Source of the DNA: a virus
Lineage: Duplodnaviria; Heunggongvirae; Uroviricota; Caudoviricetes
Virus record (IMG/VR): IMGVR_UViG_2541047968_000015
Span: 1 to 10,718 of that record
DNA length: 10,718 bases
Strand: one strand, 5' to 3'
Shown here: positions 1-10,718 of the stretch, in pieces
How the letters are laid out: every line of letters begins with the position of its first letter
Position numbering within the stretch: position 1 is the first letter of the stretch
The notes under the pieces: model-generated
The model's database searches: none
What the model saw: the letters and a program-made list of their open reading frames with translations, nothing else
What the model was told of the DNA's origin: nothing
Made by a program: the position numbers and the translations under genes

Positions 1-339
1 TGCAGCACGACGGTATAAGCCCCTGGACTCCAGTTCTTCCGCCTGGCGGGTCAGGCACAAAATCACCCTGGGATCGTTAGTGCCGACATAGAAATTGCGC
101 ACAGGTATGGTTTCAAGAACAGGTTGCAGTTTCTCCTCCTGCGATATCTCAGCCTGGTGTGGGAAATGTCTGCGTGTTTTCCCTTCACAACAGTGAGCCA
201 CACGGCCACTCTGACGTAACTTGCTTGCTGACTGCAGAACGCACTGTCGTGAGTAACCAGCAAAAGCATCCGCAATGTCACCTGAAGTACACCCCGGATG
301 GGCTTCAATGAATTTCTGTACATCGTTCATCAGACTCAT
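1..339 (-). CDS. Hypothetical protein, 3' end beyond window start (113 codons in window)
   Basis: Not in the ORF track. Hand translation of the minus strand from ATG (339-337) is open to position 1: MSLMNDVQKFIEAHPGCTSGDIADAFAGYSRQCVLQSASKLRQSGRVAHCCEGKTRRHFPHQAEISQEEKLQPVLETIPVRNFYVGTNDPRVILCLTRQAEELESRGLYRRAA. A GGGGG Shine-Dalgarno and the upstream gene's TGA stop sit directly 5' of the ATG (AGGGGGTGAtcATG). Function not recognised. Confidence 0.5.
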   Translation of the reverse strand, partial: MSLMNDVQKFIEAHPGCTSGDIADAFAGYSRQCVLQSASKLRQSGRVAHCCEGKTRRHFPHQAEISQEEKLQPVLETIPVRNFYVGTNDPRVILCLTRQAEELESRGLYRRAA

Positions 340-341
340 GA

Positions 342-1325
342 TCACCCCCTGAATCCTGTCGGGATCTGGCTGTAGTCCACGTTGTCGTAACTGGCTTTGA
401 AGTACGGGTCCTCGCGTCTGGCTGCAGATACCGCAGGAACTTCCCAGGATTCTTCGAAATGACGATCCGGACCAAAGAACGTGACAGCCTGTTTCACAAA
501 TTGTGTGCCGCTATTGCCCATCGCAGATACCCAGCCCGCGTAGCGTTTCACACCTTCCAGCATGGCTTCGGGGTTTACCCCCTCGTTCAAACGGGCTTTC
601 CAGGCTTTGAAGGCTGCTGATTTTGAATTGCCACCAGCACGTTTGGGATATTCCTGCCAGGCCTGTTCAAATTCCGGTGAATATTCCTGTCGGGCAGAAC
701 GCGCTGGCGCAGACGCGTCAGCGGATGCATCAATAGTGTTTTTAGTCTCCGTTGTAATCTCTGTAGTAATCTCTGTATTTGTATCAACATTCGGCGTATC
801 CCCTGTTCCGTTATGACGTCGGGGGGTGTTCCGTTTTAACGTAATAGCTGTATCGCTGATTGCATTATTGCTGTTACTTTCTGGCGAAACAGAAGAAGGT
901 GTGGTGATGGCCGCAATTGCCTGTGGGTTGATCCCGACAAACAAAATATTGCTGCATTTCACCCCATCGAGCATTTCCACCGTGCGTAAATCCAGAGTAA
1001 TAAACCCTGCATCGCGCAGACGCTTCAGCGCATCTGCGGTTTCCCTTTTCCCGAAACCAAACTGCTCAGCAAACGCCTGGTAGCTTCTTTGCAGTTTGTC
1101 GCCCTGAAAACGCTTGCGATATCCCAGCAACGCTCCGGTGTGCTCATCCCTGACCTCTGTCGGGCGGTACCAGTAAACGATCTCTGAAAGCAGAGCGATA
1201 GCCGTCGCATCCGGACGCCCACTGGGTAGTCGAATATATTTCCACCAGGTCGCAGGTGTAACATTGCCGGAAATATTAATTTGACCAATAGCCATAACTT
1301 CCGGTGTGGGGGCGTAACGGCTCAT
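342..1325 (-). CDS. Phage replication initiation / replisome-organiser protein (O-like)
   Basis: 327-aa ORF with AGGAGG 4 nt upstream of the ATG. The C-terminal region (FEQAWQEYPKRAGGNSKSAAFKAWKARL ... GTQFVKQAVTFFGPDRHFEESWEV) has the W/K-rich signature I associate with phage replication-initiator families. The ATG overlaps the upstream gene's stop (ATGA). Position in the cro-side operon matches lambda O or Rac ydaU. Confidence 0.75.
   Translation of the reverse strand: MSRYAPTPEVMAIGQINISGNVTPATWWKYIRLPSGRPDATAIALLSEIVYWYRPTEVRDEHTGALLGYRKRFQGDKLQRSYQAFAEQFGFGKRETADALKRLRDAGFITLDLRTVEMLDGVKCSNILFVGINPQAIAAITTPSSVSPESNSNNAISDTAITLKRNTPRRHNGTGDTPNVDTNTEITTEITTETKNTIDASADASAPARSARQEYSPEFEQAWQEYPKRAGGNSKSAAFKAWKARLNEGVNPEAMLEGVKRYAGWVSAMGNSGTQFVKQAVTFFGPDRHFEESWEVPAVSAARREDPYFKASYDNVDYSQIPTGFRG
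754..777. repeat. Perfect tandem direct repeat, 2 x 12 bp (gtaatctctgta), inside the replication gene linker region
   Basis: Seen directly: 754-765 and 766-777 are identical. It encodes the TEITTEITTE linker of the replication protein. A 9-bp direct repeat tgttccgtt lies nearby at 805-813 and 828-836. Confidence 0.7.
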
Positions 1326-1621
1326 ACAACCTCCTTCCGCGGCATGAGAATTGTGTAGCCACGCGCAGGTTGTAGTCTGGCTTTTGCATCAATAGTAAGC
1401 GTTGCAATTTTTCGGATATGAAGATAACCAGCTCTTTCCAGTGCCAGGGTTTCCCTGAATATCGCTTGCTTAGAACAACAGCAGAAATCAGCAAGCACCT
1501 GATGATCAATAACTCTCTCGCCTTCACCGTCTGAAGAACCCGACATCAAAACACGCAACATAATCAGGCGCTGAATCGGGTTATCGAAAGCACATCCGCA
1601 CACAAACTGAAAACAGTTCAC
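1322..1621 (-). CDS. Hypothetical small protein (99 aa)
   Basis: ORF with GTG start overlapping the upstream stop (GTGA) and its own stop overlapping the replication gene's ATG (ATGA), so it is translationally coupled within the leftward operon. No family recognised. Confidence 0.5.
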   Translation of the reverse strand: MNCFQFVCGCAFDNPIQRLIMLRVLMSGSSDGEGERVIDHQVLADFCCCSKQAIFRETLALERAGYLHIRKIATLTIDAKARLQPARGYTILMPRKEVV

Positions 1622-1842
1622 GCCACACCTCCCAGACGCTTAAACATTTTTCCGGAGCAAAAGGCTATAAGCGGCATACTGACGCGGTAATTACGGCCCA
1701 GCGGTTCACAAATCACCTTCTGACATTCACGGTCAACCAGGCTAACACGTAGAACATGCCCTGCAGGCGTGGTGTACCACTGACCCGGACGAGGACAACG
1801 GAAAGTATGATTGGTAAACCGTTTGAAAATATTCCGGATCAT
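1618..1842 (-). CDS. Hypothetical small protein (74 aa)
   Basis: ORF whose ATG (1842-1840) overlaps the Rha-like stop (ATGA); coupled within the leftward operon. No family recognised. Confidence 0.5.
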   Translation of the reverse strand: MIRNIFKRFTNHTFRCPRPGQWYTTPAGHVLRVSLVDRECQKVICEPLGRNYRVSMPLIAFCSGKMFKRLGGVA

Positions 1843-2384
1843 TTGCGCCCCCTTACCTCTGAAGGGTTCAGCGACAAATTTATGAGACTGGCCAGTAGCG
1901 CCGCGTCGTTGATGCGGTCATACAGACTTACAGCCAGCGGGGATTCGGCTTTTGCCAACATGGGATAAAGCTGCTGCAGCCAGACCTTGTGGATTACCGA
2001 CAGGTGGGAGTAAAGCACGCTGGCGTTATCTGCGGCATCGCTCAGCGTGGATGGCTTTGAAAGCAGTTTTTCCATCTGGTTAAAGGCATTGATGTATGCC
2101 TCTTTGAACTGGGCAGCACGTTTACCCGTGAAACCCATAGCAAGAAACGCAAAGCCGTCGCGGGTTATTTGATAGCAAGGTAGTTTGCGGCCTGTGCAAT
2201 CGGTGTAATCACTCACCGAAAAATTGCGGGCAGTGAATGATGCGGAACATTCAAGCGTGCGGATCTTTTTCAGTACATCGTCATGACGTTTGGAGAAGAA
2301 GTTGGCAACAGCCAGGGATGAAGTAACAGCCTGACCATCAACGATGGCAATTTCAGGTTGAGTGAGGGTTGGGATCGTAGCCAT
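1839..2384 (-). CDS. rha: Phage regulatory protein Rha-like (pRha domain), 181 aa
   Basis: Internal ATG at 2384-2382 preceded by GGAGG with an 8-nt spacer. The protein starts MATIPTLTQPEIAIVDGQAVTSSLAVANFFSKRHDDVLKKIRTL ... YQITRDGFAFLAMGFTGKRAAQFKEAYINAFNQME, matching the Rha family signature (F.KRHD.VL..IR ... DGF.FL.MGFTGK.A..FKE.YI.AF). The ORF track merges it with a 201-codon upstream in-frame extension. Confidence 0.8.
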   Translation of the reverse strand: MATIPTLTQPEIAIVDGQAVTSSLAVANFFSKRHDDVLKKIRTLECSASFTARNFSVSDYTDCTGRKLPCYQITRDGFAFLAMGFTGKRAAQFKEAYINAFNQMEKLLSKPSTLSDAADNASVLYSHLSVIHKVWLQQLYPMLAKAESPLAVSLYDRINDAALLASLINLSLNPSEVRGRK

Positions 2385-2987
2385 GATGGCAGCCTCCGTA
2401 TGCAATGGATAACTTCCACCACCGGAAACGCCAATTTCGCTGGTGGTGAACTGAGCAGGGTTGGCGTAACCGGCGCATACGGAAACCGGCGCACCTTTCG
2501 GTGCCCCCACCCAGCCCACCATAATTTGGGTATAGCTGAGTTGTAGCAACAAAAAAGACGCTAACGCGCCAATTGTCGCCGTATGCAATTCCAGGACGCC
2601 AATCCCGACACCCGCTTTATAAGGTGCCTGAACAGTGTAACGTCCCGGAATGGCAGAATCAATGTGCTGGTGGTCCTTCACACTCAACAAAATCACGCCT
2701 GAATTTCCACAAAGGACTAAAGCACTCATGCTGGTAGTCTTTGCGAAGATAGATAACGCGCTGTGTTTCTGGCTCCCAACGAATAACATGGACATAAAGC
2801 CCTCTTCCGTCACGAAACCAGCGGTTAAGTTCCTGCACAACTCGCCCCCCACAGTCAGGTAAAGTTCTCTGTGGTTACTTACAGCCAGGTGATTTGGTAA
2901 TCTGCATTCATGCCGTAACAACAGGTGTTCAGCGACGCTGACCACCAGCTGTTGCGACAAACGGTTATTTGCCGTTAAACTATTCAT
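2385..2987 (-). other. In-frame open segment (201 codons) between the YdaT-like and Rha-like genes; coding status unresolved
   Basis: ATG at 2987-2985 overlaps the YdaT-like stop (ATGA) and the frame runs without a stop into the Rha ATG. The translated sequence is low in charged residues (about 11 percent), rich in S/L/A/G/V, and matches no family I recognise. Could be a real N-terminal domain, a separate or fused gene, or a fortuitously open frame. Confidence 0.3.
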
Positions 2988-3541
2988 GCGTTAGTTTCTC
3001 CACAACCAGAAGCAATCGACGCCACGACGCCCGGAGCTGCACACTCGCGGGCGTTACTATTTTCTGGAGCGCAGAAGATTTTGTAGACCAGTGCTGCATG
3101 CTCCTGGAGCTTCGAAATTGAGAGGTACAGCTCGTCGTTAATTGCTGTCTTCTCATGCGGTTCCACTACACCGTCTTCGATTGCTGAACGAATCTGTCTG
3201 GAATAACTGCCGATCTGTTCAATGACTTCCAGCAGACGCTGGTTAATATCGGCGTTGTCCACATCCTCGACGTCAGGAAGAGACACAAAGACGCCATTTG
3301 CAGACTGCGCCACAGCGTCAGCAATGAAGTGAGTTCCACCAGCACGTTGTAAAATCATTGCCCATCCCAGCGGGAAAATCTGATCGCCATCTGCACGAAG
3401 GCGGTTGAATAATGCGTTCTCTGTTACATCCAGCCACTCAGCAGCTTCAGCGTAACCCCCCGGCAACGCCGCGATAGTTTTTCTGACAGCTTTCACGTAC
3501 CACTCAGGCTGTTTTTCCACTTTCCAGTGATGATTACCCAC
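2984..3541 (-). CDS. CII-like / YdaT-like regulatory protein (185 aa)
   Basis: ORF with GTG start (3541-3539) preceded by GGAGG with a 6-nt spacer, overlapping the end of the cro-like gene. Its position directly after the cro-like gene matches lambda cII or Rac ydaT; the family assignment is by position and weak recollection only. Confidence 0.55.
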   Translation of the reverse strand: MGNHHWKVEKQPEWYVKAVRKTIAALPGGYAEAAEWLDVTENALFNRLRADGDQIFPLGWAMILQRAGGTHFIADAVAQSANGVFVSLPDVEDVDNADINQRLLEVIEQIGSYSRQIRSAIEDGVVEPHEKTAINDELYLSISKLQEHAALVYKIFCAPENSNARECAAPGVVASIASGCGETNA

Positions 3542-3794
3542 GGCTTACCTCCTGTTCCTGTGGTTTAAACCCATTCTGGTTTTGGCTAGATTGAAAACGT
3601 GCCGGATAAAGAATCTGCATTTCGCTGATTTCACCCTTAAAAAAATTGGCCAGACGTTCTGCAAGATCGATAGATGGAATTTGTTCCAGTCTTTCAATAC
3701 GACTCAGCGTCGCTGGATTGACCTGAACGCCCGCAGCAACATGCTGCAAAGTAAATCCGTGCGCCTTACGCACATTCCGTAATGGTGATTGCAT
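3534..3794 (-). CDS. cro: Cro-like HTH (XRE-family) transcriptional regulator, 86 aa
   Basis: ORF with ATG at 3794-3792 and GGAGG 5' of it. Helix-turn-helix motif (GFTLQHVAAGVQVNPATLSRIERLEQIPS). Divergent from the repressor gene across a 97-bp operator region. Confidence 0.8.
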   Translation of the reverse strand: MQSPLRNVRKAHGFTLQHVAAGVQVNPATLSRIERLEQIPSIDLAERLANFFKGEISEMQILYPARFQSSQNQNGFKPQEQEVSRG

Positions 3795-3891
3795 ATAACC
3801 TCCACATATTGCGTGATGAGCATATTATTTCACGCAAATATTTTGCGCAAGTTGATTTGCTTAACGCGCAATAAAGAAATGTAATAAACGC
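3795..3891. promoter_or_regulatory. Divergent immunity-region promoter/operator segment (PR-like for cro; cI promoter unresolved)
   Basis: Minus-strand promoter candidate: -35 TTGCGC (complement of 3845-3850), 17-nt spacer, -10 TAATAT (complement of 3822-3827). Inverted repeat TTGCGTGA-N13-TCACGCAA at 3809-3837 overlaps the -10 and start region. Palindrome TTGCGCAA at 3843-3850. A 15-bp TTGC-N7-GCAA site at 3857-3871. Confidence 0.6.
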
Positions 3892-4584
3892 ATGAACATA
3901 GGAAACCGAGTCAGACAACTTCGCCAGGCGAAGAACATGAAAATCGCCGATCTCGCTGAAGCAATAGGAGTGGATGCGGCGAATATCTCACGCCTGGAAA
4001 CAGGTAAGCAGAAACAATTCACTGAACAAGCCCTGAGTAATATTGCCAGGAGCTTAGGTGTTGATATTGCTGATCTCTTTACCTCAGACGTCAAAAGTAA
4101 TACTGTATGTAAAAACAGTATTAGTGAGGATGTTGCGCAGGTGAAGGATGTATTCCGTATTGAAATGCTGGATGTCAGTGCCAGTGCGGGAAATGGCCTT
4201 ATCCAGGGCGGTGATGTCATTGATGTGATTCATGCCATTGAATACAGAACTGATAATGCTGTATCGATGTTTGGTGGACGACCAGCAAATCACATTAAAG
4301 TTATCAACGTTCGTGGGGACAGTATGTGTCCAACCATTGAGCCAGGAGATCTCATCTTCGTTGATATCAGTATCAATCAGTTTGATGGGGATGGTATATA
4401 TGTATTTGGTTTTGATGATAAAATTTACGTCAAACGACTGCAAATGATACCTGATAAACTGCTGGTAATTTCTGATAATCAGATTTACCGCGAATGGGGA
4501 ATTACCAGCGAAAACGAACATCGGTTTATGGTCTTTGGAAAGGTCTTAATCAGTCAGTCACAAACCCTTAAGCGACACAATTAA
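3892..4584 (+). CDS. cI: cI-like prophage repressor, N-terminal HTH plus C-terminal S24 (LexA-like) peptidase domain, 230 aa
   Basis: N-terminal HTH (MKIADLAEAIGVDAANISRLETGKQ). C-terminal S24 signature with catalytic Ser in GDSM (VINVRGDSMCPTIEPGDLIFVD) and downstream Lys (IYVKRL). Divergent from the cro-like gene. Confidence 0.9.
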   Translation: MNIGNRVRQLRQAKNMKIADLAEAIGVDAANISRLETGKQKQFTEQALSNIARSLGVDIADLFTSDVKSNTVCKNSISEDVAQVKDVFRIEMLDVSASAGNGLIQGGDVIDVIHAIEYRTDNAVSMFGGRPANHIKVINVRGDSMCPTIEPGDLIFVDISINQFDGDGIYVFGFDDKIYVKRLQMIPDKLLVISDNQIYREWGITSENEHRFMVFGKVLISQSQTLKRHN

Positions 4585-4605
4585 CCCCCTACCTCAACAT
4601 CAATT

Positions 4606-4630
4606 AGCCACCAGAAGGTGGCTTTTCATT
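4606..4630 (+). terminator. Rho-independent terminator downstream of the repressor gene
   Basis: Perfect 7-bp stem AGCCACC (4606-4612) / GGTGGCT (4617-4623) with loop AGAA, followed by TTTCATT. Confidence 0.8.
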
Positions 4631-4640
4631 ACCCACCAAA

Positions 4641-4694
4641 TTGCATATCTCGCAATAAAAACACTTGCATAATGCGCAACTTCATTTTATCTTT
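4641..4694 (+). promoter_or_regulatory. PL-like operator pair and candidate rightward early promoter
   Basis: Two 15-bp TTGC-N7-GCAA sites (4641-4655 ttgcatatctcgcaa; 4665-4679 ttgcataatgcgcaa) share the half-site motif of the cro/cI intergenic sites. Candidate -35 TTGCAT (4665-4670) and weak -10 TATCTT (4688-4693) with a 17-nt spacer. Promoter hexamers are weak; the operators are the firmer observation. Confidence 0.45.
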
Positions 4695-5123
4695 CTTTCC
4701 AGACCTACAAACAAGGTACTAACAAAATTTGGTTGTAACACGGCGTATGGCACATGCGTCGTTAGCGGTCTGGGGACGTTAAAGGGGACAATCCACTCCT
4801 TGCTCGGGCAAACAAACCAGGTAGCCGGAATGTGCAAGTCAATGAGGATGCTGATAAGACGCCTAACCAGCGTGGCGATTCGGTTTGACGCCTGGGAAGA
4901 GACCAGGACGCAACGATGAGAGCATTTATGGAGCCGCGACAAAGTGTGGTGCCGTAACTGGCTAAGTGCTCTCAGCGTTGTGGTGAATGCGCAGGCTGAT
5001 GCGCGAAAGACATTGCAGCTATTGCGGAAAAGAGCTGTTCGGCGGGGCAATTAAACGCCCGTGAGAGTCTGAAATAACCGCAAGCCGGAGATCAGCACCG
5101 GTCACCACAACAGCCACTGCTTT

Positions 5124-5170
5124 GGCGGTACCAGTTTGTACACTTGCTTCCGGCTGGTACCGCTCTTTTT
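5124..5170 (+). terminator. Hairpin with T-tract (candidate intrinsic terminator or attenuator) in the leader of the rightward operon
   Basis: Perfect 10-bp inverted repeat GCGGTACCAG (5125-5134) / CTGGTACCGC (5154-5163) with a 19-nt loop, followed by TCTTTTT (5164-5170). The loop is long for a canonical terminator. Confidence 0.45.
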
Positions 5171-5259
5171 ACAAAACAGAGAAGAGCATCACCGGACGAC
5201 GGGCTCATAACCCAATCCATCCGGGCGGCTGCCACCGCAGGTGTTCTTCTCTGTTTTGT
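5171..5259. repeat. Perfect 15-bp inverted repeat with 59-bp spacer, immediately upstream of the RdgC-like RBS
   Basis: ACAAAACAGAGAAGA (5171-5185) and its exact reverse complement TCTTCTCTGTTTTGT (5245-5259). The left arm abuts the T-tract of the preceding hairpin; the right arm ends about 22 nt before the GAGGAAAA Shine-Dalgarno. Confidence 0.7.
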
Positions 5260-5293
5260 GGAGAAACTAATACATTGTGCAGAGGAAAATAGA

Positions 5294-6211
5294 ATGAAAT
5301 TACCAAAATTTCGTAACGCAATTGTGTACCGAGCAACATTACCTAGTATACAGGCTATTGAAGGTCATCTTCTCGAACTCCCTTATTCTGAAATCGGGGA
5401 AACAGAATTTTCACGGTCCTCTTTTGTAGAGAATCCTGTCACTGGTGAACTGGTAACTCCGATATCTGGTGGGTACGCAATGGTAATCCGTCATGATCAG
5501 AAAATAATTCCCCGACATGTCGTCATGAAAGAAGCTAATTCTCGAATCCAAACAATCGAAAATATGTCCGGGAATAAATTAAAGCGTGCCGAACGACTGG
5601 CCATTATTGATAACGTACGAGTAGATCTATGCAAACAGGCATTTGTTAAGTCTACTCTGATTCTTGCATTGTACAGCACTGATGAGAAATTATTGGTAAT
5701 CAACACAACCAATAAAATAATAGCCGGTATGGTATGCGCAATGCTGATTAAGGTTGTCGGTTCAGTGAAAACAGAAACAATCAACATCAGTGATATCAAG
5801 AATGGACTGACTACACGCCTGAATAACTACATCAATGGTGCAGCCAATGCATTTGAAGGATTCACTGTCGGAAATTATATTCAGCTATCACGCTACGCAG
5901 ATCAAAAGGAAATTATTCGCTACTCAGCTGAGCATGAGTCAATTCAAAGCGAACTGGCCGATAGCCTTAGTAGTAGTTTCACTGCTGATAAAATGGAGTT
6001 ATCCGGTTGCGGTGTGACCTTCATTCTTACCGAAAATTTCCATTTTTCGCGCATCAATACTCAATCTCAGACATTTAATGATGAAGATGATAAAGCATTC
6101 CAGTGGCGTCATCAGACTGGCGCTGACCTTTTCCAATTCAGCAAGGTAGTTAATTTGATGTGTGACCTTCTTTCTTACAAAGAAGATAAAAGCCAAAATC
6201 CAACAACTTAA
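5294..6211 (+). CDS. RdgC-like recombination-associated DNA-binding protein (305 aa)
   Basis: ATG at 5294 preceded by GAGGAAAA. The N-terminus MKLPKFRNAIVYRATLPS parallels RdgC (MLWFKNLMVYRLS...), and further blocks (AMVIRHDQKIIPRHVVMKEANSRIQTIE; LILALYSTDEKLLVINTTNKIIAGMVCAMLIKVVGSVKT) align with my recollection of E. coli RdgC. The track's TTG-start extension (5144) is rejected. The gene is noticeably AT-rich relative to its neighbours. Confidence 0.8.
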   Translation: MKLPKFRNAIVYRATLPSIQAIEGHLLELPYSEIGETEFSRSSFVENPVTGELVTPISGGYAMVIRHDQKIIPRHVVMKEANSRIQTIENMSGNKLKRAERLAIIDNVRVDLCKQAFVKSTLILALYSTDEKLLVINTTNKIIAGMVCAMLIKVVGSVKTETINISDIKNGLTTRLNNYINGAANAFEGFTVGNYIQLSRYADQKEIIRYSAEHESIQSELADSLSSSFTADKMELSGCGVTFILTENFHFSRINTQSQTFNDEDDKAFQWRHQTGADLFQFSKVVNLMCDLLSYKEDKSQNPTT

Positions 6212-6215
6212 AAAA

Positions 6216-6259
6216 ATTGCAGCAATCATCCCATGTTAAATGGGCTGGATTGCTGCAAT
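6216..6259. repeat. 12-bp perfect inverted repeat (ATTGCAGCAATC / GATTGCTGCAAT) with 20-bp spacer between the rdgC-like and HD genes
   Basis: Arms at 6216-6227 and 6248-6259. The spacer contains a nested CCCAT/ATGGG mini-hairpin. An A7 run (6209-6215) precedes it, so on the minus strand it reads as stem plus U-tract. Confidence 0.6.
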
Positions 6260-6301
6260 CAAAATTCAGAGCGGTGCAGCGCATATAACGTGGAGAACAA
6301 A

Positions 6302-6838
6302 ATGTCATTTATTAAAACTTTTTCCGGGAAGCATTTTTATTATGACAAGATAAATAAAGACGACATCGTGATTAACGATATCGCGGTTTCCCTTTCAAAT
6401 ATCTGCCGCTTTGCCGGTCATCTTTCTCACTTCTACAGTGTCGCCCAACATGCGGTGCTTTGCAGCCAGCTGGTGCCGCAGGAATTTGCTTTTGAAGCGT
6501 TAATGCATGATGCAACAGAAGCGTATTGCCAGGATATTCCCGCTCCACTGAAACGCCTTCTTCCTGACTATAAACGGATGGAAGAAAAAATAGACGCCGT
6601 AATCCGTGAGAAATACGGGTTACCCCCGGTTATGAGCACGCCTGTGAAATATGCCGATCTCATCATGCTGGCAACCGAACGCCGCGATCTCGGGCTTGAT
6701 GATGGCTCTTTCTGGCCAGTACTGGAAGGTATCCCGGCAACAGAAATGTTCAAAGTTATTCCACTGGCTCCGAGCCATGCCTACGGGATGTTTATGGAGC
6801 GCTTTAACGAGTTATCGGAGTTACGCACATGCGCATGA
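6302..6838 (+). CDS. HD-domain phosphohydrolase (YfbR-like 5'-nucleotidase fold), 178 aa
   Basis: ATG at 6302 preceded by GGAGA. Metal-binding HD signature: H in VAQHAV, HD in EALMHDATEAY, and downstream D in ADLIMLATERRD. The track's longer start at 6233 lies inside the inverted repeat and is rejected. Confidence 0.75.
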   Translation: MSFIKTFSGKHFYYDKINKDDIVINDIAVSLSNICRFAGHLSHFYSVAQHAVLCSQLVPQEFAFEALMHDATEAYCQDIPAPLKRLLPDYKRMEEKIDAVIREKYGLPPVMSTPVKYADLIMLATERRDLGLDDGSFWPVLEGIPATEMFKVIPLAPSHAYGMFMERFNELSELRTCA

Positions 6839-7440
6839 ATGTTTTCGAAATGGAAGGGTTTCTTCGCGGGAAATGTGTACCACGAGATCTGAAAGTGAAT
6901 GAAACAAATGCTGAATATCTGGTGCGTAAATTTGCTGAAGCGGAGGCCAAGATTTTGGCTCTGTCCGAAGACCAACAGAAATCGATTGAGTCAATTAAGC
7001 AGGCTGATGCAGCTGTTAAGTTGGCACACGAGAAGTTTTCGGCGCTGGCGGCGGAGAATGCGGGGCTGAAACACGCAATGGCCGTAACTCTTGAGCATGT
7101 GTCGGTCACGGATGCAGGGCAGGCTGGTGTTGCTGCAATGATTATCAACGATGCCCTGCACCACAGCGAAACTCCAGCCACCGATGCTTTCCTGGCTGAA
7201 ATTCGTGCGGAAGCACGCAACGAGGGGATTAACTATACCGCAAGCCGTCTTGCTGCTGCTTTCAATCACGGATTTATCAATAAGTCTTTACGTGAAGTTT
7301 TCGACGTTACACGCATGATTCTGTCAGCGAAAGAAGAGTTGGCTAATGAACCACACCCGATTGATGGCCTGTCCGGTGAATATGCGGAGAAATCCCTAGA
7401 AGAATGGGCGGAACAGATTCGCAAAGGAGGCAACCAGTGA
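6829..7440 (+). CDS. Hypothetical coiled-coil protein of the Ea22-like accessory region (203 aa)
   Basis: ATG at 6829 with GGAG 8 nt upstream, overlapping the HD gene stop. Ala/Glu/Lys-rich heptad-like N-terminal half. Family uncertain. Confidence 0.65.
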   Translation: MRMNVFEMEGFLRGKCVPRDLKVNETNAEYLVRKFAEAEAKILALSEDQQKSIESIKQADAAVKLAHEKFSALAAENAGLKHAMAVTLEHVSVTDAGQAGVAAMIINDALHHSETPATDAFLAEIRAEARNEGINYTASRLAAAFNHGFINKSLREVFDVTRMILSAKEELANEPHPIDGLSGEYAEKSLEEWAEQIRKGGNQ

Positions 7441-7661
7441 GCGGAAAAAGAATGACTAACAGAGAGCTTGTCGATGCCGCGATTAAGCTTGCTGGTGATT
7501 TTTATTCAATGATGGGGTACACGCATCGCCCAGGCTTCAAATATTGGGAGTCTCCTCACCCGCAAGAGCAACTGGTATTTCAAATGGCCTGCCGTGCTTT
7601 TGAGGTTATTTGCGGTTCTGATGTGATGGACGCCGTTGCCGACTTGGAGGATGAAGAGTGA
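7437..7661 (+). CDS. Hypothetical small protein (74 aa, GTG start)
   Basis: GTG at 7437 overlaps the upstream TGA (GTGA) with GGAGG 6 nt upstream. The track's longer 7404 start lacks an RBS. An in-frame ATG at 7452 is an alternative start. Confidence 0.6.
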   Translation: MSGKRMTNRELVDAAIKLAGDFYSMMGYTHRPGFKYWESPHPQEQLVFQMACRAFEVICGSDVMDAVADLEDEE

Positions 7662-8023
7662 GCGAGATTAACTATCAGGCACTGCGTGAGGCAGCAGTAG
7701 CAATTGAAACAGTGGCAACGCCTCAAAAATTGCAGGCGTTTCGGATGAAGGTCACACCGTCGGTGGTACTGGCGCTGCTGGATGAAATTAAGCGCCTGGA
7801 GGACACAAATATTGATGCTATGTGCCGAATTGCAGAACTGGAAGCGAGGGAAGTCGAGTTACCGGATGGCTACGAACCCCGTATGGGCCACCCAATAAAT
7901 AGCGGTGAGCGGGTGGTAATGATGCCGCACCACTTTGGTGGATGGCTGGACCGCTTCGACGTCGAGCACGCATTGCAGGCAGCGGGGATCAAATTCAAAA
8001 CAGCGGGGGTTGAGTACGAATGA
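7658..8023 (+). CDS. Ead/Ea22-like protein (121 aa)
   Basis: GTG start overlapping the upstream stop (GTGA) with GGAGG 7 nt upstream. The N-terminal motif INYQALREAA resembles the conserved start of Ead/Ea22-like proteins as I recall them. Confidence 0.6.
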   Translation: MSEINYQALREAAVAIETVATPQKLQAFRMKVTPSVVLALLDEIKRLEDTNIDAMCRIAELEAREVELPDGYEPRMGHPINSGERVVMMPHHFGGWLDRFDVEHALQAAGIKFKTAGVEYE

Positions 8024-8253
8024 TTGAGGGTATTAGCAATAAATCGTTGAACACAGCATGTGTCGACGGTGGGTTGTTGTACAAAGTGACGTTTACGCAA
8101 ATCGACAACGAAGATAACGCATTCACTGTGATTTACACGTCGCCAGCGATGGCGCAGAAGTGGGTGGATCTGCACAGGCTATGTGGTTTTCGTGTTGAGT
8201 GGGGGTGCTATGAGATGCGATGCAGATGGCATCATCGGGGGGATGAAAAATGA
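8020..8253 (+). CDS. Hypothetical small protein (77 aa)
   Basis: ATG overlaps the upstream stop (ATGA); G-rich stretch upstream. No family recognised. Confidence 0.55.
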   Translation: MIEGISNKSLNTACVDGGLLYKVTFTQIDNEDNAFTVIYTSPAMAQKWVDLHRLCGFRVEWGCYEMRCRWHHRGDEK

Positions 8254-8627
8254 GCACTACGCTTGAGCAATGGCTGGAACAGCAGCACGGCAAAATTGAT
8301 GTTGATTGCGGCTGTGTGAGCACTGAAACGCTTATGCACTGGATGCGTGTGGCGTATGAGGCTGGCAACTCTCCGGTAACTCCGGAGAGTTGGATAAGCT
8401 GTAGTGAGCGAATGCCAGAAATGGGAGAGCGACAATGCTATGTGTTAGCTGCTGACTTTAAAAACAACTACCCACCAAACATCCCCAACACTCAGGTCGG
8501 CGTATATGGCGACTGGTTTAATGATGGCAAGCCCACTTGGGATGACGGTGATGGCGAAGACCTGTATCTCAAGGAGGTAACCCACTGGATGCCGCTGCCA
8601 GAACCGCCGCAAGAGGTGAATCAATGA
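8250..8627 (+). CDS. DUF551-like phage protein (125 aa)
   Basis: ATG overlaps the upstream stop (ATGA). The C-terminal motif ...GDWFNDGKPTWDDGDGEDLYLKEVTHWMPLPEPP matches my recollection of the DUF551 signature (HWMP.P.PP). Confidence 0.65.
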   Translation: MSTTLEQWLEQQHGKIDVDCGCVSTETLMHWMRVAYEAGNSPVTPESWISCSERMPEMGERQCYVLAADFKNNYPPNIPNTQVGVYGDWFNDGKPTWDDGDGEDLYLKEVTHWMPLPEPPQEVNQ

Positions 8628-8707
8628 GCTGGCCTGATGCAATCGTAACTCTGGGGGTGGTATTCGCAGCAGCGTTTGTTGTGTTCTCGATTTGTCGATG
8701 GGGATAA
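8624..8707 (+). CDS. Candidate 27-aa single-pass hydrophobic peptide
   Basis: Hand-translated: ATG at 8624 overlaps the DUF551 gene stop (ATGA), giving MSWPDAIVTLGVVFAAAFVVFSICRWG then TAA. It exactly fills the gap before the next gene. Below the ORF-track size cutoff. Confidence 0.35.
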   Translation: MSWPDAIVTLGVVFAAAFVVFSICRWG

Positions 8708-8711
8708 CCAC

Positions 8712-8954
8712 ATGTTCGCTTTGATTCAACGCGGGCAGATATACACCGATAGTGCTGGCTACCCGATAAAAATTGTTCGCTGCATAAACAACACTGTGTT
8801 GTACAGAAGAATGGATGGGCGAACACAGTCGGTAAAAATAAACGATTTTAATGAACTGTTTGAACGGATCGATCACCAGGAATACCGACAAATTCTGGCA
8901 GAAACAGAGCAGGAAGCTCATCTGAAAAAATTACGAGCCATGAAAAGGAAGTAA
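8712..8954 (+). CDS. Hypothetical small phage protein (80 aa; possibly DUF4222-like)
   Basis: ATG at 8712 with GGGGA 7 nt upstream. The track's TTG start at 8676 overlaps the small peptide ORF and is rejected. The pattern IQRGQIYTDSAGYPIKIV...VLYRR...F resembles small DUF4222-type proteins, but this is a weak recollection. Confidence 0.55.
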   Translation: MFALIQRGQIYTDSAGYPIKIVRCINNTVLYRRMDGRTQSVKINDFNELFERIDHQEYRQILAETEQEAHLKKLRAMKRK

Positions 8955-8957
8955 ACA

Positions 8958-9104
8958 ATGAATAAAGCATTTGAACAATGGGTCCACCAGCGTTACGGCA
9001 ATCGCTATGACCTGACGCGAGATGTTGACGGTTTCTACTGTCGTGAAATTGTGAAACGAATGTTTGAAGTGTGGTGCCACTGCCGTGGGCTGAGTGTTGT
9101 GTGA
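8958..9104 (+). CDS. Candidate small Cys/His-containing protein (48 aa)
   Basis: Hand-translated: AGGAAG 8 nt upstream of ATG 8958, giving MNKAFEQWVHQRYGNRYDLTRDVDGFYCREIVKRMFEVWCHCRGLSVV then TGA at 9102-9104. It fills the gap before xis. Below the track cutoff. Confidence 0.45.
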   Translation: MNKAFEQWVHQRYGNRYDLTRDVDGFYCREIVKRMFEVWCHCRGLSVV

Positions 9105-9112
9105 GGTAATGC

Positions 9113-9349
9113 ATGGGCAATGTGATTCAACTGGCTCCCAATGAATGGGTTTGTGAAAGCGTTCTAATCGCAATTACCGGGCTCAAACCAGGCACAATTC
9201 TTCGGGCCCGGAAAGAATGCTGGATGGTTGGAAGAGAGTATATTCACGTATCACCAGACGGTAATCCAAAGCCTTCCAGTGAATGTATGTATAACAGAAA
9301 AGCAATAGGTGCCTGGGTCGCTTCAATGAAAAACAAACAACCTGGGTGA
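9113..9349 (+). CDS. xis: Excisionase-like protein (78 aa)
   Basis: Immediately upstream of the integrase. The segment ILRARKECWMVGREYIHV parallels lambda Xis VRRWVRECRIFPP..GREYLFH. GAGGT lies upstream of the ATG. Confidence 0.65.
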   Translation: MGNVIQLAPNEWVCESVLIAITGLKPGTILRARKECWMVGREYIHVSPDGNPKPSSECMYNRKAIGAWVASMKNKQPG

Positions 9350-9404
9350 TTTAATGCCATGAAGTATGTAAGCTCGTATCGCTCTTGGGCGTCTGGAGGT
9401 ATCA

Positions 9405-10718
9405 ATGGATAAAGTCAAATATCCAACAGGCGTCGAAAACCACGGCGGCACATTACGCATCTGGTTTAATTTTAAAGGTAAACGTGTCAGGGAAAATCTT
9501 GGTGTCCCTGACACTGCCAAGAACAGGAAGATCGCCGGGGAACTGCGGACATCGGTATGTTTTGCCATCCGCACAGGAAGCTTTGATTATGCTGCACAGT
9601 TCCCTGACTCCCCCAACCTTCAGGCTTTTGGGGTAAGTAAAAAAGAAATTACGGTGAAGGAACTTGAAGAAAAGTGGCTGGATCTGAAACGAATGGAAAT
9701 CTCTGCAAATGCATTCAATCGCTATGAATCCGTTGCAAGAACGATGGTTTCGAAAATTGGAGGCAGTAGACTGGTGTCATCGGTAACCAAAGAGGAATTG
9801 CTGTATATCAGGAAAGATTTGCTAACCGGGTATCAGAATTCAACGAAAAACAAAGCAGCAGCAAAAGGACGGAGCGTCGTTACTGTAAATTATTACATGA
9901 CGACAATCGCTGGAATGTTTCAGTTTGCTGCAGATCACGGTTACTTAGAAGCAAATCCCTTCCAGGGAATTAAGCCTCTTAAAAGAGCCAGGGCAGAGCC
10001 AGATCCGCTAACTCGTGACGAATTTATTCGCCTGATAGATGCTTGCCGACATCAGCAGACGAAAAACCTGTGGTCATTGGCTGTGTACACAGGAATGCGT
10101 CACGGTGAACTGGTCTCCCTGGCCTGGGAAGATATCGATCTGAAGGCAGGAACAATTACCATCAGGCGCAATTATACGAAACTTGGTGAGTTCACTCTAC
10201 CGAAAACTGAAGCAAGCACAAACAGGGTTGTGCACCTTATCCAGCCCGCTATCAGTGTCCTGAAAAATCAGGCTGAAATGACAAGACTGGGTAAGCAGTA
10301 CAACATCAAGGTGCAACTACGTGAATATGGACGTTCAGTGAACCATGAATGTACTTTCGTGTTTAACCCTCAAGTGGTTAGAAAAAGCGAACAGGTAGGT
10401 TTTGTCTACAAAGTCGATTCTGTAGGTGACTCATGGGAAACAGCCATTAAGCGTGCAGGGATCAGGCATCGAAAGGCATACCAGTCACGACACACTTATG
10501 CGTGCTGGTCATTATCTGCCGGAGCAAACCCAAGCTTCATTGCCAGCCAGATGGGCCATGCAAGTGCCCAGATGGTATTCAATGTATACGGAGCATGGAT
10601 GACTGACAGCAATGCAGAACAGATCGCAATGCTGAATCAGAAGCTGACAGATTATGTCCCAATGATGCCCCATAGTCACCAAAGTGACACCAGAGGCTTA
10701 TTAAAATCAGTAAGTTAA
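9405..10718 (+). CDS. int: Tyrosine site-specific integrase, IntR/Rac-type with N-terminal arm-binding domain (437 aa)
   Basis: GGAGGT 5 nt upstream of the ATG. N-terminus PTGVENHGGTLRIWFNFKGKRVRENLG is typical of the arm-type DNA-binding domain. C-terminal catalytic region has RHTYACWSL ... MGHASAQMVFNVYGAW with the Tyr nucleophile. The stop codon coincides with the window end. Confidence 0.9.
   Translation: MDKVKYPTGVENHGGTLRIWFNFKGKRVRENLGVPDTAKNRKIAGELRTSVCFAIRTGSFDYAAQFPDSPNLQAFGVSKKEITVKELEEKWLDLKRMEISANAFNRYESVARTMVSKIGGSRLVSSVTKEELLYIRKDLLTGYQNSTKNKAAAKGRSVVTVNYYMTTIAGMFQFAADHGYLEANPFQGIKPLKRARAEPDPLTRDEFIRLIDACRHQQTKNLWSLAVYTGMRHGELVSLAWEDIDLKAGTITIRRNYTKLGEFTLPKTEASTNRVVHLIQPAISVLKNQAEMTRLGKQYNIKVQLREYGRSVNHECTFVFNPQVVRKSEQVGFVYKVDSVGDSWETAIKRAGIRHRKAYQSRHTYACWSLSAGANPSFIASQMGHASAQMVFNVYGAWMTDSNAEQIAMLNQKLTDYVPMMPHSHQSDTRGLLKSVS

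Follow-up and report, generated by a model that had tools for sequence, protein, structure and literature searches.

Operators and a structured leader between cI and an rdgC-like gene argue for an early-left operon in an Escherichia coli lambdoid prophage

Introduction

In a small number of lambdoid phages, RdgC homologs are encoded immediately to the left of cI, and their genes may, like rexA, be part of the cI transcript (PMC12315714), a suggestion based on the RdgC-like fold of RexA (PMC11077077). RdgC restricts the loading of RecA or its activity (Drees et al. 2006; Moore et al. 2003; both cited in PMC11077077). We analyzed one such gene in the window, by which we mean the whole 10,718-nt stretch of viral DNA studied (positions 1 to 10,718 of IMG/VR record IMGVR_UViG_2541047968_000015, Caudoviricetes), a lambdoid E. 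coli prophage of the kind represented by SfV, e14, and mEp460. The rdgC-like gene lies beyond the cI-type repressor gene, is preceded by a structured leader, and is followed by yfdR, which encodes an HD-domain protein.

K-12 YfdR has an HD domain with a nucleotide affinity much below that of YfbR; it binds domain I of DnaA, an interaction that depends on Phe46, in competition with DiaA and DnaB, and initiation is inhibited in vivo only by multicopy yfdR together with yfdQ and either yfdS or yfdT (PMC4776307). The gene identities, the presence of phage RdgC homologs at this early-left position (noted in 2025), and the properties of YfdR are already in the literature or in annotation. Because phage RdgC homologs in this position and YfdR have been published, novelty there is low. 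No functional characterization of phage RdgC homologs was found in the literature searched.

Results

Operators separate the repressor gene from the rdgC-like gene

The features on which the operon assignment depends are as follows.

3892–4584, + strand: cI-type repressor gene (Pfam Peptidase_S24 and HTH_3; phrog_4; named XRE family regulator by PGAP)
4606–4630, + strand: intrinsic-terminator-like hairpin and T-run, predicted by a terminator scan to close the cI transcript
4641–4655 (TTGCATATCTCGCAA) and 4665–4679 (TTGCATAATGCGCAA): two left-operator (OL)-type operators, TTGC-N7-GCAA, both exact palindromes
4665–4670 (−35, TTGCAT), 17-nt spacer, 4688–4693 (−10, TATCTT), + strand: candidate early-left promoter, read from the sequence
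4700–5293, + strand: noncoding mosaic leader of the putative early-left operon, with no convincing coding capacity
5294–6211, + strand: rdgC-like gene, 305 amino acids (Pfam RdgC, PF04381; named rdgC by PGAP)
6302–6838, + strand: yfdR, HD-domain protein of 178 amino acids, 98% identical (174/178) to E. coli K-12 YfdR

The terminator-like hairpin starts 22 bases past the cI stop codon, and an equivalent hairpin and T-run is found 20–50 nt past cI in six immunity variants. The operator motif behind it is also present in the gap between cI and cro, once exactly (3857–3871) and once with one mismatch (3809). The order of cI stop, terminator, and two operators 22–24 bp apart is repeated in five further relatives, the cI proteins of which are 58–71% identical. 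The second palindrome (4665) provides the −35 hexamer TTGCAT of the candidate promoter, and the TTGCGT-17-TATCTT geometry is shared by relatives L061 and L095. Operators of the cI–cro type are therefore found on the cI-distal side, overlapping a putative promoter from which transcription would start near 4700, and the arrangement downstream of cI is the OL/left-promoter (PL) layout of lambda. Since a terminator, two operators, and conserved promoter-like hexamers separate cI from rdgC, the sequence argues that rdgC and yfdR belong to a repressor-controlled early-left operon and not to the cI transcript. An earlier note on this DNA had placed the two genes first in a repressor-controlled operon, and the operators between cI and rdgC bear out the repressor control. 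They are also the first convincing protein-coding genes past the repressor; they do not, though, follow the promoter directly, a leader of ∼600 nt standing between.

The operator evidence bears on the published hypothesis that rdgC is a RexA-like gene of the cI transcript, expressed with cI in the prophage and acting in exclusion or in biasing the choice between lysis and lysogeny (PMC12315714, PMC11077077). That rdgC is next to cI on the same strand, that RexA has an RdgC-like fold, and that the AT-richness of rdgC is moron-like would all fit such a function. Against it, all the immunity variants examined have the terminator and both OL operators between cI and rdgC, which would put the gene neither inside the cI transcript nor upstream of OL/PL; the leader RNA and insertion slot of rdgC are also those of ordinary early-left genes; and a scan of the neighboring genes gave no rexB-like partner, the neighbors being yfdR and a YfdS-like gene. 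The protein model aligns with RdgC along its full length, tip domain included, and the 50 PDB matches listed for it contain no RexA chain (see below). We consider a RexA-like role quite improbable.

The protein is a full-length member of the RdgC family

The rdgC-like gene is preceded by a Shine-Dalgarno sequence, AGAGGA, at 5281–5286, 8 nt upstream of its start codon. Its product had been called an RdgC homolog, and this holds: PF04381 is matched at 108.4 bits over residues 6–280 (cutoff 25), and phrog_724 at E = 4e-77. An AlphaFold2 monomer model (predicted local distance difference test, pLDDT, 86) contains the base, centre, and tip domains of RdgC, and superposes on E. coli RdgC (2OWL_A) over 305 aligned columns with a template-modeling (TM) score of 0.82 and a root-mean-square deviation of 2.9 Å (E = 8e-19, 19% identity). 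It also superposes on P. aeruginosa RdgC, after which come only weak matches of the Iml3/Chl4 kinetochore type. By analogy with these structures the protein would form a ring homodimer with a basic pore that binds double-stranded DNA nonspecifically and inhibits RecA. Of the six NCBIfam RdgC models (equivalog and subfamily), none reaches its cutoff, and the best score is 91 bits where 227 would be needed. Because it passes the Pfam threshold and falls far short of every NCBIfam cutoff, the protein belongs to the family without being orthologous to chromosomal RdgC.

Its relatives form a separate prophage clade that extends across Enterobacterales and beyond. RdgC homologs match in 185 phage records, the closest sequenced phage being 67% identical and HrdC of P1 ∼22%. 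Five distant members of the clade with ∼37% identity (P0110, P0111, P0115, P0118, and P0120) carry a C-terminal FtsK-gamma domain (PF09397), a fusion that would bring sequence-specific DNA recognition to the RdgC ring.

A covarying RNA stands directly upstream of rdgC

The leader of ∼600 nt is structured, separates the promoter region from rdgC, and holds a terminator-like hairpin and a conserved RNA. Its elements are listed below, together with copies of the RNA found elsewhere.

5162–5268, + strand: three-way-junction leader RNA, 107 nt, covarying, immediately preceding rdgC; it comprises the ∼22-bp stem P1, the hairpin P2 with GGG-CUCAUAA-CCC (5201–5213) at its apex, and the variable helix P3, which takes insertions
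5124–5170, + strand: GC-rich hairpin GGCGGTACCAG / CTGGTACCGC followed by TTTTT, terminator-like, conserved, and present in the minimum-free-energy fold
4901–4988, + strand: degenerate paralog of the long-stem leader element, related to stem P1 (weak covariance-model match, 10.6 bits)
L003 1209–1324 and 1496–1574 (P1 69718–69833 and 70005–70083): copies of the leader RNA in phage P1
L100 2509–2574: copy of the leader RNA in Klebsiella phage GZ7, immediately after a tRNA-Arg gene

Across 33 distinct sequences, 9 of the 35 pairs of the leader RNA are changed on both sides (RNAalifold), and 98.4% of alignment cells are paired, against 42–58% when partners are slid by 1–3 columns. The covariation score was reached by none of 500 shuffles, the covariance model (R1) scores 117.6 bits on the window copy, and the fold of the single sequence has a z-score of −6.7. 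The loop and flanking pairs GGG-CUCAUAA-CCC have the anticodon-arm sequence of the E. coli initiator tRNA; only the apical P2 hairpin resembles an anticodon arm. Readings of the leader as tRNA genes or as a known Rfam family were rejected: ARAGORN detects no tRNA in the window, nor does it at this element in the 54 loci scanned, and Rfam gives no match at E ≤ 1.

By the covariance model, the window has a single full copy, and the operon of the right promoter (PR) has none. Two diverged copies occur in the tRNA-containing ban operon of P1, opposite annotated coding sequences (CDSs) named “plp” and “upl”, annotations that may be spurious; two “hypothetical” minus-strand open reading frames (ORFs) annotated in mEp460 likewise overlap covarying helices of the leader. 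Klebsiella-type relatives retain only the long stem. In 76 viral contigs the gene next to the leader RNA is yfdP in 44, rdgC in 11, and yfdR directly in 7, and because the next gene alternates in this way the RNA marks the head of the operon with an exchange slot behind it.

The rest of the leader is a mosaic. Positions 4727–4904 are 78% identical to the unannotated trnI–ban gap in the C1-controlled ban operon of phage P1; a 40-nt segment at ∼4965–5008 (GUGAAUGCGCAGGCUGAUGCGC and flank) recurs at ∼90% identity in many unrelated phages (HK620, T1-like, Vi01-like); and 5121–5290 is common to SfV, ST64B, phiNP, LLS, and others. At 4901–4988 the flanks are conserved and the apex is variable, and in L171 the flanks hold a complete copy with a tRNA-like hairpin; the homologs of this second stem include too few diverged ones to assess covariation. 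The arms of the 5124–5170 hairpin show compensatory changes across loci. Relative L095 has a 50-nt insertion in the loop of this hairpin type, and because the loop tolerates such an insertion its function as a terminator is uncertain. In some Klebsiella-type relatives, L095 among them (5431–5789), a 119-codon ORF stands between PL and the leader RNA. A GATAAT promoter directly upstream of the leader RNA in some loci was rejected as a candidate, since in L095 it is inside the enlarged hairpin loop, past the inserted ORF.

No N-like gene is present in the window, and no N-type antiterminator is the first gene, 4700–5293 being without a conserved coding ORF. The leader RNA may act in antitermination, in translational control, or, like the lambda N leader, as a substrate of RNase III processing. 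The put element of HK022 was rejected as a match: the covariance model finds nothing in HK022 22000–31500, blastn-short returns only chance 9–11-mers, and the topology is different. A boxA-like UGCUCUU(U) on the 3′ strand of the long stem proved a weak lead; its positions vary with compensatory changes, so that the pairing is conserved and boxA itself is not. Pas small RNAs of enteropathogenic E. coli prophages, which adjoin structural genes, were judged unrelated.

rdgC was exchanged as an AT-rich cassette

The exchanged unit can be delimited against phage mEp460.

5271–6259, + strand: exchanged AT-rich cassette with rdgC (blastn breakpoints against mEp460; composition profile)

The breakpoints are at 5270/5271 and 6259/6260, the flanks are collinear and 94–95% identical, and the 989 bp with rdgC stand in place of 1376 bp with yfdP and yfdQ in mEp460. 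G+C is 0.38–0.41 over ∼5250–6450 and 0.50–0.55 on either side, which coincides with the exact breakpoints. The earlier note had remarked that rdgC is AT-rich relative to its neighbors and had taken this as a sign of modular acquisition; both remarks are sustained, the breakpoints marking a horizontally exchanged module.

Part of the region is matched in 3359 of 5426 complete E. coli genomes, and in 18 the match covers at least 80% of it. Two further listed matches at 77% coverage also carry rdgC–yfdR, for a total of ∼20/5426 (∼0.4%), and listed matches at 57% coverage carry yfdQ–yfdR. Most yfdR genes adjoin yfdQ, and in E. coli <1% of them are next to rdgC. Viewed from the RdgC side, 43 of the 96 loci of the clade have yfdR one or two genes after rdgC, with RdgC 47–100% and YfdR 54–100% identical to their counterparts in the window. 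In a large Klebsiella-type clade, rdgC precedes a gene like the N-terminal part of YfdS (YfdS-N) and then a ParB-like gene, with no yfdR, and Rosenbergiella, Edwardsiella, and more distant loci have other neighbors of rdgC. The adjacency of rdgC and yfdR is recurrent and not obligatory; the two are swappable neighbors rather than a fixed pair. Their co-occurrence in other prophages, proposed earlier as a check on whether they belong together, is thus frequent but not the rule, given the Klebsiella-type clade without yfdR and the many yfdR genes beside yfdQ.

The alternation of nonhomologous cassettes at a fixed promoter-proximal site, and the sporadic distribution of this one (∼0.4% of E. coli genomes), would also be expected of a counter-defense cassette, in which alternative proteins that counter defenses or mask their triggers occupy the slot and the RdgC-like protein, rather than tuning recombination, shields phage DNA or neutralizes a host immune sensor. 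Overexpressed host rdgC is listed among the triggers of a retron toxin/antitoxin system (bioRxiv 10.1101/2020.06.22.160242). Set against this, RdgC homologs are widespread in virulent and temperate phages with recombination-associated annotations, and we give such a role little credence.

yfdR is joined to its downstream neighbor rather than to rdgC

The HD protein had been described as a small HD phosphohydrolase; the family assignment stands, and the protein is YfdR, a 5′-deoxynucleotidase-like HD protein. It matches phrog_318 (E = 2e-111) and the HD-domain protein of PDB entry 2GZ4 (E = 6e-14), the metal-binding residues of the HD motif (H50, H69–D70, and D78) are present, and Pfam YfbR-like is just under threshold (24.0 vs. 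a cutoff of 25.9). The stop at 6838 agrees with the coordinates first given to the gene but the start does not: ATG 6233 is an upstream in-frame codon and the true start is 6302, since RefSeq/PGAP at an essentially identical locus and K-12 begin at the equivalent codon. DnaA binding and nucleotidase activity may be ascribed to the window protein only by analogy with K-12 YfdR.

The gene that follows completes the series.

6829–7440, + strand: YfdS-like gene that overlaps the stop codon of yfdR; residues 1–45 of its product are 89% identical to YfdS and the remainder is unrelated

The YfdS-like family (cluster c0) comprises 64 downstream ORFs across loci, behind either yfdR or rdgC. In nearly all loci, genes with the YfdS-N module trail yfdR, or rdgC where there is no yfdR, and overlap the upstream stop. 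The 45-residue N-terminal module shared with YfdS (MRMNVFEMEGFLRGKCVPRDLKVNETNAEYLVRKF...) heads proteins with unrelated C-termini (L004–L099). The gene to which yfdR is translationally coupled is its downstream neighbor and not rdgC.

These data bear on the possibility that the RdgC-like protein takes the place of YfdQ as the partner that YfdR and the YfdS-like protein require, the trio blocking DnaA-dependent initiation at oriC with RdgC as a DNA platform. The gene is found exactly at the yfdP–yfdQ position upstream of yfdR, the rdgC–yfdR order is kept across pairs that have diverged to ∼50% identity, a YfdS-N-like gene follows in nearly all loci, and inhibition in K-12 needs yfdQ, yfdR, and yfdS or yfdT (PMC4776307). 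RdgC and YfdQ, however, lack similarity of profile (hhalign probability 0.1%) or of fold; rdgC occurs without yfdR in a large clade, and yfdR without either partner in seven contigs; in E. coli, rdgC adjoins <1% of the yfdR genes; and 90 nt separate rdgC from yfdR while yfdR overlaps the next gene. We consider a required trio unlikely. Distant homology of RdgC-like and YfdQ was itself rejected at that hhalign probability, the YfdQ model having no significant PDB match and missing RdgC; this rejection is not absolute, as the YfdQ model is only moderate (pLDDT 75). PDB entry 9o7m, named “YfdQ protein”, has 36 chains, which implies a large assembly; no paper on it was found in the literature searched.

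Setting of the region in the window

The remainder of the window contains the following.

342–3794, − strand: replication, Rha/antirepressor, ymfL, and cro-like genes
From cI onward, + strand, in order: cI, rdgC, yfdR, YfdS-like, Ead/Ea22-like, DUF551, DUF4222, excisionase, integrase
631, 2439, 2666, 2942, 3336, and 8984: Chi sites, four of them on the − strand
2439–2526 and 2551–2627, − strand: C4 antisense RNA and isrK (Rfam)

Pfam and PHROG scans find no exo/bet/gam, recET, or erf between rdgC and int. The Chi octamer GCTGGTGG occurs six times in the window, where 0.28 are expected. Chi richness and the missing recombination (Rec) module fit the lambdoid class described as having “no Rec module, high Chi”, phages of which are without N and may use a put-like RNA antiterminator (PMC12315714). 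An O-like replication protein was the one component identified in the replication module, which gave no match to a helicase or loader.

The C4 antisense RNA (80.7 bits) and isrK (58.9 bits) matches are inside a “Rha family” CDS (1839–2987, 382–387 codons), the recognizable Rha portion of which begins near MATIPTLTQ. The annotation of this CDS is probably over-extended across an RNA-controlled antirepressor module like immI of P1.

Discussion

We think it fairly probable that the region is the promoter-proximal end of a cI-repressed early-left operon, in which the RdgC-like protein and YfdR serve parallel host-directed functions. On inactivation of cI, transcription would probably begin near 4700, from a promoter overlapped by two operators. 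The early-left transcript would cross the structured 600-nt leader and reach the exchangeable slot behind the leader RNA, which holds yfdP–yfdQ in most relatives and a phage-clade rdgC here. Early after induction or infection the RdgC-like protein would coat DNA and restrain the loading or activity of RecA (RecFOR-dependent loading, strand exchange, and co-protease function). YfdR and its YfdS-like neighbor would probably damp host initiation at oriC through the contacts of DnaA with DiaA and DnaB. Freed DnaB and a quiet oriC would be a plausible benefit, because the replication module of the window offers no helicase or loader that we found. The two proteins would thus act in parallel on host DNA transactions and not as an obligate pair. 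The analysis itself establishes the gene identities, the fold, the arrangement of operators and terminator, the cassette exchange, the pattern of co-occurrence, and the structure of the RNA, whereas we infer all biochemical activities in this phage and the parallel action of the two proteins. The effects on host recombination or nucleotide pools suggested in the earlier note are conjectural in the same way.

Several points weigh against this scheme. The candidate promoter matches the consensus at 8 of 12 positions and is under the scan threshold, which makes it a weak one. A terminator-like hairpin stands between it and rdgC, and no antiterminator was identified. The activity of this RdgC clade is projected from chromosomal RdgC by analogy, and the NCBIfam scores indicate that it may have diverged. 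The effect of YfdQRST in K-12 is seen only on overexpression, and the authors concede a possible artifact (PMC4776307). Finally, inhibition of RecA seems at odds with a Chi-rich phage that is thought to need host recombination; one possibility is that the RdgC-like protein suppresses RecFOR-type loading rather than the RecBCD pathway.

A more tentative proposal, which we regard as possible but on the unlikely side, gives the leader RNA the central part. It would be a new cis-acting class with an initiator-tRNA-like arm that gates the early-left operon of N-less lambdoid phages by antitermination, RNase processing, or translational control; the slot behind it would be a dedicated exchange site, and the RdgC-like protein and YfdP/YfdQ would be interchangeable partners of YfdR in a takeover of host replication and recombination. 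The leader RNA may explain early-left control in N-less lambdoid phages and is the part of this locus most worth pursuing. The alternation of rdgC with yfdP–yfdQ on flanks that are 94–95% identical is, for its part, a natural swap experiment for the function of the cassette, and could show whether YfdR needs a partner to block DnaA.

Comparison with known systems

Chromosomal RdgC of E. coli and P. aeruginosa (2OWL, 2OWY; PF04381) has the same length and the same whole-chain fold as the window protein. The window protein differs from it in having only 18–19% identity, in scoring below the NCBIfam cutoffs, and in being encoded by an AT-rich gene of a prophage early operon that belongs to a separate Enterobacterales-prophage clade. 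Phage-encoded members of the family also include HrdC of P1 and P7 and the phrog_724 members of Vibrio, Pseudomonas, and Klebsiella phages.

The yfdP–yfdQ–yfdR–yfdS(–yfdT) cluster of CPS-53, SfV, and mEp460 has the same yfdR (98% identical to K-12) and the same N-terminal module of YfdS, and mEp460 and SfV also agree with the window in operon position, in flanking DNA, and in having the leader RNA, which K-12 CPS-53 has lost. In contrast to this cluster, the window has rdgC for yfdP and yfdQ, and keeps only the first 45 residues of YfdS.

Lambda RexA is alike in its RdgC-related DNA-binding fold and in the position of its gene, which adjoins cI on the same strand (PMC11077077, PMC12315714), whereas the window gene is past the cI terminator and the OL operators, encodes the full RdgC architecture, and has no identified rexB-like partner. 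Like put of HK022 and the hairpin of the lambda N leader, the leader RNA is a structured RNA, presumably cis-acting, at the head of an early operon, here the early-left operon of an N-less lambdoid phage; put, however, consists of two adjacent stem-loops of ∼70 nt, with related putL and putR after PL and PR, whereas the leader RNA is a three-way junction present in a single full copy.

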